From assembly GCA_047459655.1 (NCBI GenBank), contig JAJREF010000001.1, forward strand, positions 448,001-512,000: a stretch of 64,000 bases of DNA. The letters run 5' to 3'. Each line of letters opens with the position of its first letter. The first letter of the stretch is position 1. The notes below the pieces were generated by a model. That model saw only the letters and a list, made by a program, of their open reading frames with translations. It did not search any database and had not been told where the DNA came from. The stretch comes from Rhabdochlamydiaceae bacterium (GTDB taxonomy: Bacteria > Chlamydiota > Chlamydiia > Chlamydiales > Rhabdochlamydiaceae). Shown here in pieces: positions 44,390 to 46,308 of the stretch. The translations under genes and the position numbers were made by a program.

Positions 44390-45553
44390 AGAGTTTGAAG
44401 CGCATGTCGAAGGAATGTGCGCAACTATTCAAGATATCCCCGATGATAGAATCGCTTTTGTAGCGCACCCTACACCTGAAGTTATTTTCTTGTTTTTTGC
44501 ACTCTGGAAGTTAAAAAAAATTGCCTGCCCTTTAAGCCCCCGCCTCCCCTCTGTGGCAGCTTCCATAGAAGAATTAGATGCCTATTTCATTACCCCTCCT
44601 ATGCCCATCCCAAAAAAACCAACACCGTGGACTCTACAAGGAAATCAGCCTGCCACCCTCCTCTTTACATCAGGATCAGCAGGTAAACCAAAGATCGCCT
44701 GCCACTCCATTAATAATCATCTCTATAGCGCTTTGGGCGCGCGCGCAATCATTGAGCTTCTCCCTGAAGACACCTGGCATCTATCCCTTCCCCTTTTCAT
44801 ATAGGAGGGATTGCCATTTTGTTCCGCTGCTACCTAGCGCGCTGCTTTATCTCCTTACAAAGTGATCAAAAAGCTGCTTCTTACCTCTCCCTTGTTCCCA
44901 CACAATTCATCAGATTACAAGAAAAGGAGCCCTGCCTACCCCATCTCAAAGGAATTCTCTTAGGTGGCGCGCCCCTCATTCCCTCCTACACATCTCCTTG
45001 GAAAATCTATCCAACCTATGGAATGACTGAAATGAGCTCGCAAATTGCCACCTGTGGAAAAGTGTTGCCCTACAGAGCCGTCAAACTCTCTACAGATGGA
45101 GAGATCCTCGTCAAAGGAAAAACCCTTTTCCAAGGATATTTCCACAAGACAGCAGGCCTCTTGCTACCACTGGATCCCGAAGGATGGTTTGCTACAAAAG
45201 ATCTTGGAAAATGGAATGAAAAAAACCAACTAGAAATCACTGGCCGCAAAGATAATCTATTCATTTCTGGAGGAGAAAATATCCAACCCGAAGAAATTGA
45301 AGCTGCGCTCAAACAAGTTCTTCCTCTCGATGAGGCCCTCATCTCTTCTATTCCAGATCCCCTCTTTGGAGCAAGACCCGTCGCCTTCTTACAGCCCCTC
45401 TATGAACTATCCCTTGTACAAGAAAAGCTAAAAGACCTCCTACCCAAATACAAAATACCGATCCGCATCTTTCCCCTCCCTCAGACACCTTCTCTCAAAC
45501 CCTCGCGCCAGCTGCTGAAAGAGTTTCTAGAAAAGAATAGCCTAAACTCTTAA
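44352..45553 (+). CDS. menE: o-succinylbenzoate-CoA ligase (frameshifted)
   Basis: FTSGSAGKPK, SLVPTQ, TYGMTEMSSQ and GRKDNLFISGGENIQPEEIE. Confidence 0.93.
45481..45536 (+). repeat. 56-bp direct repeat, left copy (inside the menE 3' end)
   Basis: TCAGACACCTTCTCTCAAACCCTCGCGCCAGCTGCTGAAAGAGTTTCTAGAAAAGA is 54/56 identical to 46253-46308. Confidence 0.95.
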
Positions 45554-45591
45554 AATAAAGAAGTAGAAGCTTTTTGTAGGCGTAACAACTT

Positions 45592-45897
45592 ATGGGCAAG
45601 AAAAAAAATAAAGATTCGGTATTATCAATCAAGAAAAAGGCAGTGCCCATCTTGAAAAGACACGCTGTAAAACGGGCCTCGATTTTTGGTTCATTTGCTC
45701 GAGGATGTGCTAAACCTACAAGTGATATTGATTTTCTTATCGAATATAAAGGAACCGATAAAAGCCTCTTTGATTTAGTTGATTTGAAGTCAGACTTAGA
45801 AAAAAGCCTCCACCGTAAAGTTGATCTAGTAACGTATAAATCGATTTATTGGGGCCTTCGCAAACGCATTCTTGCAGAACAGGTTGTGATCTTGTGA
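45592..45897 (+). CDS. Minimal nucleotidyltransferase antitoxin (MntA-like)
   Basis: FGSFARG...SDID (GSX10DXD) and RKVDLVT. Overlaps the HEPN start (GTGA). Confidence 0.92.
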   Translation: MGKKKNKDSVLSIKKKAVPILKRHAVKRASIFGSFARGCAKPTSDIDFLIEYKGTDKSLFDLVDLKSDLEKSLHRKVDLVTYKSIYWGLRKRILAEQVVIL

Positions 45898-46247
45898 AAA
45901 AAGACCCAAAGGTGTTTCTTGTTCATATTCTAGAGTGCATTCTTCTTATAGAAAAGTATTCAAAAAAAGTGACTGCAGCAAAGTTTCACAAAGATCCAGT
46001 ACTACAGGATGCAATCATTAGACGCCTTGAAATTATTGGAGAGGCTGTCAAAAATTTACCTGCCCCAGTCAAAACACAATACTCGAATATTCCTTGGAAG
46101 CAAATGGCCGGAATGAGGGATGTTTTAATTCATGAGTATTTTAATATTGACCTCTTTCTCACATGGAAAGTGGTCAAGCAAGAACTTCCTCTCATCAAAA
46201 AGCAATTATCAGCGATTCTTGCAGACAAATATACTCCTTCCAAGTGA
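45894..46247 (+). CDS. HEPN-domain RNase toxin (DUF86/HepT-like)
   Basis: DAIIRRLEIIGEA and IPWKQMAGMRDVLIHEY (RX4HXY). Confidence 0.92.
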   Translation: MKKDPKVFLVHILECILLIEKYSKKVTAAKFHKDPVLQDAIIRRLEIIGEAVKNLPAPVKTQYSNIPWKQMAGMRDVLIHEYFNIDLFLTWKVVKQELPLIKKQLSAILADKYTPSK

Positions 46248-46252
46248 GATCT

Positions 46253-46308
46253 TCAGACATCCTCTCTCAAACCCTCGCGCCAGCTGCTGAAAGAGTTTCT
46301 AGAAAAGA
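46253..46308 (+). repeat. 56-bp direct repeat, right copy (contains the 3' end of the thioesterase gene)
   Basis: 54/56 identical to 45481-45536. Confidence 0.95.

Follow-up and report, generated by a model that had tools for sequence, protein, structure and literature searches.

Organization of the locus

The window, that is, the whole 64,000-nucleotide stretch analysed here (contig JAJREF010000001.1 of the Rhabdochlamydiaceae genome GCA_047459655.1, referred to as G000), contains a small toxin–antitoxin (TA) pair located between two convergent housekeeping genes, menE and an acyl-CoA thioesterase gene. The features relevant to this work are as follows:

44343–45553, plus strand: menE, o-succinylbenzoate-CoA ligase (profile matches)
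45481–45536, plus strand: left copy of the duplicated 56-bp target, encoding near-terminal MenE residues (repeat comparison, independent contig)
45537–45553, plus strand: new menE tail NSLNS*, in place of the tail TIPE* of the collapsed site (translation)
45537–46252, no strand: inserted DNA between the repeats, 716 bp (sequence)
45592–45897, plus strand: mntA antitoxin, 101 aa, minimal nucleotidyltransferase (PF18765/PF01909 above cut-off)
45894–46247, plus strand: hepT toxin, 117 aa, HEPN RNase (PF01934, 101 bits)
46253–46308, minus strand: right copy of the 56-bp target, with the thioesterase C-terminus and stop (repeat comparison)
46267–46722, minus strand: acyl-CoA thioesterase, hot-dog fold, 4HBT family (profile matches)

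The segments 45481–45536 and 46253–46308 form a direct repeat with 54/56 identical positions and a spacing of 772, and both the coordinates and the identity given in the earlier note for the repeats enclosing the TA pair were reproduced. This is the sole long repeat within 43000–49000, and no third copy of the 56-mer was found in the 1.61-Mb G000 genome, where the best other match was 20 nt long. The menE gene reads through the left copy and stops 17 nt beyond it, and the TGA stop codon of the thioesterase (46267–46269, minus strand) falls within the right copy. Collapsing the repeats in silico yielded overlapping convergent genes with menE ending in TIPE*, in agreement with the previous reading of the left copy as near-terminal MenE sequence and of the right copy as the thioesterase C-terminus with its stop. 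Both mismatches between the copies (offsets 8 and 10) are past the thioesterase stop, in a part of the right copy that can change freely. There is no need to invoke gene conversion, since two mismatches over 56 bp agree with a duplication that took place shortly before the split from the strain found in the X4 run (see below). The repeat could not be extended significantly past 56 bp in either direction (P = 0.11 on the left; for the left tail compared with the congener G002, P = 0.08), and a promoter-like match at 45528–45556, the −35 box of which lies in the left repeat, was given no weight (9/12 matching positions; 7 such sites found vs. 3.7 expected).

The insert's GC content is 36.7%, compared with a genome value of 41% and a menE value of 45.7%. 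The unit had been described as free of mobility genes and inverted repeats, and indeed neither an integrase nor a transposase ORF was detected in it by the ORF list and profile search, and of the inverted-repeat pairs listed (25 of 38), none marks its ends.

The real start of the thioesterase gene is probably the ATG at 46665. The menE gene is split into two ORFs near 44793, probably by an assembly indel. Contigs of the sequencing run that matched best (X1, possibly the source sample) showed one-base differences at window positions 43740, 44793, and 47683, where menC, menE, and the first kinase gene appear to be frameshifted (44793 also differed in X4); thus, these three frameshifts are probably assembly indel errors. 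Further elements were seen in the vicinity. An IS4-family element lies at about 41960–43449, inside the menaquinone cluster, 2 kb upstream of and outside the unit; it has seven copies of at least 99.5% identity in the genome, indicating recent activity, and is missing from that site in G002. Tandem Ser/Thr kinase paralogues occupy 47086–49894, between the thioesterase gene and a TPR gene, and they are present in G002, but not in G001, G015, and G033. The segment 58563–58731 belongs to a MITE- or REP-like palindromic repeat of 170 bp that ends in TTAA and is dispersed over the genome in approximately 96 copies.

The inserted pair

The hepT start codon is a GTG overlapping the stop codon of mntA (4-nt overlap, GTGA), and this start is conserved among close relatives. 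Translation of the two ORFs revealed the intact motifs GSX10DXD in MntA (G33-S34-X10-D45-X-D47) and RX4HXY in HepT (R75-X4-H80-X-Y82), which were defined for the Class I systems in the accessible text of PMC7641770. As in the HepT/MntA systems described there in 2020, mntA is located upstream of hepT, PF01909 and PF01934 are represented, and both motifs are intact; the pair differs from them in that its scores are just below the NCBIfam equivalog cut-offs of 60 (MntA NF047752, 54.3 bits; HepT NF047751, 48.1 bits). By domain order and motifs, the pair can be classified as an intact Class I-type HepT/MntA system (type VII TA), the toxicity of which is predicted. At window position 45961, the single contig of the X4 strain (depth 4.7) carries a one-base insertion in hepT, by which the toxin may be broken in that strain, unless it is a contig error.

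Assembly support for the junctions

The single-base indel errors near the locus and the fact that X1 leaves the repeats uncovered could raise the suspicion that the repeat is an assembly artefact. However, a contig of the X3 run covers the entire left repeat (45390–45585) with 0 differences, and the X4 run, which contains a strain approximately 90% identical in the flanking genes, provided contigs leading from menE into the repeat, from the TA pair (hepT) into the repeat, and from the repeat into the thioesterase gene, so that the junction of the TA pair with the right repeat is present in another strain, too. Moreover, the two copies differ at two sites, and the same architecture occurs in a relative, G073 (see below). 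The X3 and X4 contigs come from two other studies and support the junctions. Mis-assembly, which would have overturned the interpretation of the earlier note, is very unlikely, with a chance that we consider close to negligible. Among the contigs listed from four runs, all of low depth, no joint across the unit was seen, and the datasets listed as matching the sequence included no RNA run.

The same site in relatives

The earlier note had supposed that the TA pair came in later while both genes were preserved, and the menE–thioesterase junction of relatives bears this out. Fifty-one thioesterase loci were examined, 34 of which have an adjoining convergent menE, leaving 33 when the window is set aside. 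The bare overlap (24–133 bp) was found in 28 of these 33 relatives, including both congeners, G002 and G001, and 26 others; these empty sites are at the level of congeners, and none was seen in the same species. Two relatives have a short gap, and three contain an insert of >150 bp. These data support that the TA pair was inserted later into an ancestral overlap, the duplication of which keeps both genes intact.

Two of the three inserts of >150 bp contain no repeat. The third one, found in G073, which belongs to another genus, is an unrelated TA pair at the same overlap (L270:1832–2813, contig G073:C55), consisting of a Gp49/HigB-like toxin (PF05973), interrupted by an in-frame stop, and an HTH_37 antitoxin (PF13744). 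It is flanked by an 81-bp repeat (81–91 bp) with 91% identity that extends across both stop codons and has ends different from those of the 56-mer in the window. In the genus of G073, 10 of the 13 other loci are bare. The menE/thioesterase overlap has thus been duplicated twice, around different TA pairs and with different ends.

The MntA–HepT pair probably arrived by insertion with long target duplication into the menE/thioesterase overlap, without the action of a recombinase. A one-step capture and a duplication followed by deletion cannot be told apart by the structure alone. One observation, made in G002, is not explained by one-step arrival from outside: a 107-bp remnant comprising the 3′ part of mntA and the first hepT codons (L002:1926–2032) lies directly at the 5′ side of the thioesterase gene in the same orientation, approximately 400 bp from the empty site of this genome and on the opposite side of the thioesterase from the TA pair of the window. 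It could be a relic of a local hop, in which the TA pair was first located just upstream of the thioesterase gene and was copied to its other side by a tandem duplication or a short template switch, after which the extra thioesterase copy was reduced to 56 bp and the original TA copy fell into decay. The coexistence of the bare overlap and the remnant in G002 would suit these events, as would the 78% identity of the remnant to the mntA of the window (79% in the flanking genes), the finding that, of 17 clade copies, the one in the window matches it best in raw comparison (83/107, the next being 78/107), and the fact that it is the only other TA trace at the 51 thioesterase loci. On the other hand, in the tree the remnant falls together with the copies of G068 and G001 (99/97; G079 and G063 were omitted as partial and truncated, respectively), and the AU test rejected a clade of G000 and the remnant (p = 0.019, from 107 columns of decayed sequence); an earlier tree of the 107-nt stretch was unresolved. 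Furthermore, no TA trace occurs upstream of the thioesterase gene in G000, where a profile search for a decayed mntA gave no match, no trace of the G073 TA pair was found at the other thioesterase loci of the set of 51, and the interval between the thioesterase and the TPR gene also takes other insertions, such as the kinase genes. A local hop therefore seems unlikely, and insertion with long target duplication is retained as the preferred explanation.

Search for traces of a recombinase

The unit had also been proposed to be a minimal att-like island that could excise as a circle. It is well known that long att duplications can restore the ends of genes, and the 56-mers could be regarded as attL and attR of a larger integrase-driven island of which later deletion left only the addiction module. 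In favour of this, the same overlap was hit twice, and one chlamydial case, L048, has a fitting repeat at a tRNA end. The two insertions at the site differ, however, both in repeat length (56 vs. 81–91 bp) and in their ends, and no core or motif is shared among the 28 repeats compared, save one 15-nt match between two attC-like cases. Only two tyrosine recombinases, which we take to be XerC and XerD by their resemblance, and no resolvase were found in G000 (genome 81.6% complete), and no larger island was present at the site in the 33 relatives. We also scanned 99 of the 111 ORFs around 25 repeat-flanked cases (loci of 1.3–8.3 kb; 12 ORFs overlapping the TA genes or covered by another scan were omitted), and these 99 neighbouring ORFs included one DDE transposase and one HTH_38 domain, but no member of an integrase or recombinase family. 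Integrase att sites and integron TA cassettes share with this locus a TA pair bounded by direct repeats, but here the integrase, the conserved core, and the attC-type hairpin are all missing, and the repeat is protein-coding host sequence. Consequently, the att-like, recombinase-made island could not be upheld: an integrase origin is unlikely, and a trimmed island remnant in particular is distinctly improbable.

Distribution of the TA lineage

Relatives of mntA with 66–78% identity were detected in 14 other genomes of the 129 in the family, and where genome records are named, the nearest relatives of HepT are from Chlamydiae. The 18 loci of this clade are scattered: a common site was seen only in two same-genus pairs, and a third locus lies near one of them. 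The same TA clade is located downstream of a cysS gene pair in G004 and G103, and in G026 it lies close to that pair but is oriented the other way (L227, L231, and L228), so the cysS neighbourhood is possibly another reused site. The toxin (hepT) frame is broken in 7 of the 18 loci, although some of these breaks may be assembly errors. A flanking repeat was found in 4 of the 18 (the window, G068, L148, and L149). This counts against the favoured long target duplication, as most clade copies must have arrived otherwise or lost their repeat. Four chlamydial MNT–HEPN pairs besides that of the window are bracketed by 28–75-bp repeats at or adjoining the 3′-ends of host genes (RDD, uvrB-like, and others), namely L051 (G002:C2), L233 (G068:C6), L148, and L149.

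TA modules had been said to be scarce in chlamydiae. This is right for the Chlamydiaceae, which lack TA pairs, while Chlamydia-related species have known ones, according to the accessible text of PMC10880633; it does not apply to the present family, in which TA pairs are common, with HepT-like genes in 17 of 36 genomes and Gp49/HigB-like genes in 84 of 129. As to whether other TA pairs of the genome have long flanking direct repeats, none of the four other toxin-like loci tested in G000 (a second MNT–HEPN and three Gp49-like) had a flanking repeat. A further pair, presumably RelE-like and HTH by resemblance, is located at G000:C1:64449–65328 between two 58-bp copies of a repeat, but these belong to a 33-copy repeat family and were rejected as a target duplication.

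Survey of repeat-flanked MNT–HEPN pairs

The sample combined family matches with the 80 best-scoring HepT relatives from each of two collections and is, therefore, not random. It contained 179 MNT–HEPN pairs in 171 clusters, 148 of which have at least 250 bases of flank. At a threshold of 50 bits or more, a direct repeat brackets the pair at 26/148 loci (window included), compared with 0/148 for inverted repeats and 2/312 for shifted controls (from 100 loci). A second method gave 27/148 vs. 3/97 for gene-boundary controls, which were similar-sized non-TA genes of the same loci (Fisher p = 2.5e-4, the rows not being fully independent), and 8/715 for single ORFs in G000. The enrichment over the gene-boundary controls was approximately six-fold and extended across many phyla. 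Gp49-type TA loci were flanked by repeats at a lower rate (3/28), and housekeeping thioesterase loci were not (0/43).

Fifteen of the 26 repeats cover the start or stop of a flanking ORF, which is partly expected of any intergenic insert; the covered genes include purL-, rpiB-, nusB-, DHQS-, and SpoU-family members. The 26 also comprise L144 and L204 with putative hairpins like those of integron attC sites, the tRNA-end repeat of L048, and one doubtful ORF call. This leaves about 13 of the 148 in which the start or stop of a host gene is cleanly duplicated. The check for empty sites covered the chlamydial cases.

Discussion

Insertion with long target duplication was described by Furuta, Abe, and Kobayashi (2010; PMC2853133) for restriction–modification (R–M) genes, and Nobusato et al. 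(2000) is cited there for R–M long target duplication; as far as the accessible text of that paper goes, such repeats often span a start or stop codon. Compared with the definition used there, the repeat of the present locus is longer than 30 bp (56 bp, 54/56 identical) and not multicopy (only two copies in G000), the insert is far below 20 kb and has no mobility gene (716 bp, mntA and hepT only), and an empty site with one copy is present in relatives (28 bare overlaps, at congener level); the cargo, however, is MntA–HepT rather than R–M, so the locus is like the R–M cases without being one. It shares with them a small addiction-type pair without a mobility gene, a unique host-derived direct repeat of >30 bp, an empty site in relatives, and a repeat spanning a stop codon, owing to which the host gene survives. 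It differs in that the cargo consists of an RNase and an adenylyltransferase, with no DNA-cutting enzyme, that the target is the overlap of two convergent genes, and that the relatives showing the empty site are congeners and not same-species strains.

The following course of events can be proposed. The ancestral site was the bare overlap, and across the family the TA lineage occupies numerous unrelated positions, its unit lacking any mobility gene. A TA fragment may have been joined to a broken or stalled chromosome end just after the 56-mer, and replication may then have restarted before the 56-mer on the sister copy by illegitimate joining or template switching, which would have written the target twice. 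MntA and HepT are an adenylyltransferase and an RNase and are not known to cut DNA; because of this, we infer that host break repair or template switching wrote the duplication. Breaks made by the cargo are, on this reasoning, probably not needed. In gene overlaps, only insertions that copy the gene ends would spare both genes, and such insertions would be kept by selection, which could explain how one site received two insertions that differ in their ends. If the repeats were to recombine or slip, the pair would be lost and the ancestral overlap regained, and, going by what is known of the family, the unmodified HepT RNase would then penalise the collapsed cells until the toxin decays. The idea that addiction stabilises the locus does not follow from this, as the collapse restores the intact ancestral overlap; because it leaves both host genes intact, addiction could preserve only the TA pair itself.

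The single locus is modest when taken alone, as it combines a known TA family with a known type of scar. No description of long target duplication for TA pairs was found in the literature covered, which did not extend to subscription journals and bioRxiv supplements. The accessible text of PMC7641770 mentions no flanking duplications for HepT/MntA, and the word "toxin" is absent from the main text of PMC2853133. In the same text, DNA double-strand breakage is suggested as common to the R–M types, and a cycle of amplification and release is put forward, for the release step of which evidence is stated to be lacking. The cargo of the present locus, cutting no DNA, separates the mechanism of duplication from restriction activity, and its footprint is clean, has empty-site relatives, and is seen again at this overlap around a second TA family.

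Stand-alone chromosomal TA pairs seem highly mobile, often without any mobility gene. According to the accessible text of PMC2654758, they can form genomic islets alone and share apparent mobility with R–M systems, and the fixation of chromosomal TA pairs is stated to be not understood. Somewhat short of an even chance, long target duplication may be a general, transposase-free route by which TA pairs spread without requiring a DNA-cutting cargo: host repair would write the duplication, selection would keep the gene-sparing events, and addiction would block the collapse. It is equally tentative, as part of this reading, that the scar is still visible in approximately one in six to one in ten HepT/MntA pairs and that gene overlaps serve as repeat landing sites. 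If true, this would speak against the R–M cases being caused by restriction breaks and would give part of the answer to how stand-alone chromosomal TA pairs move.
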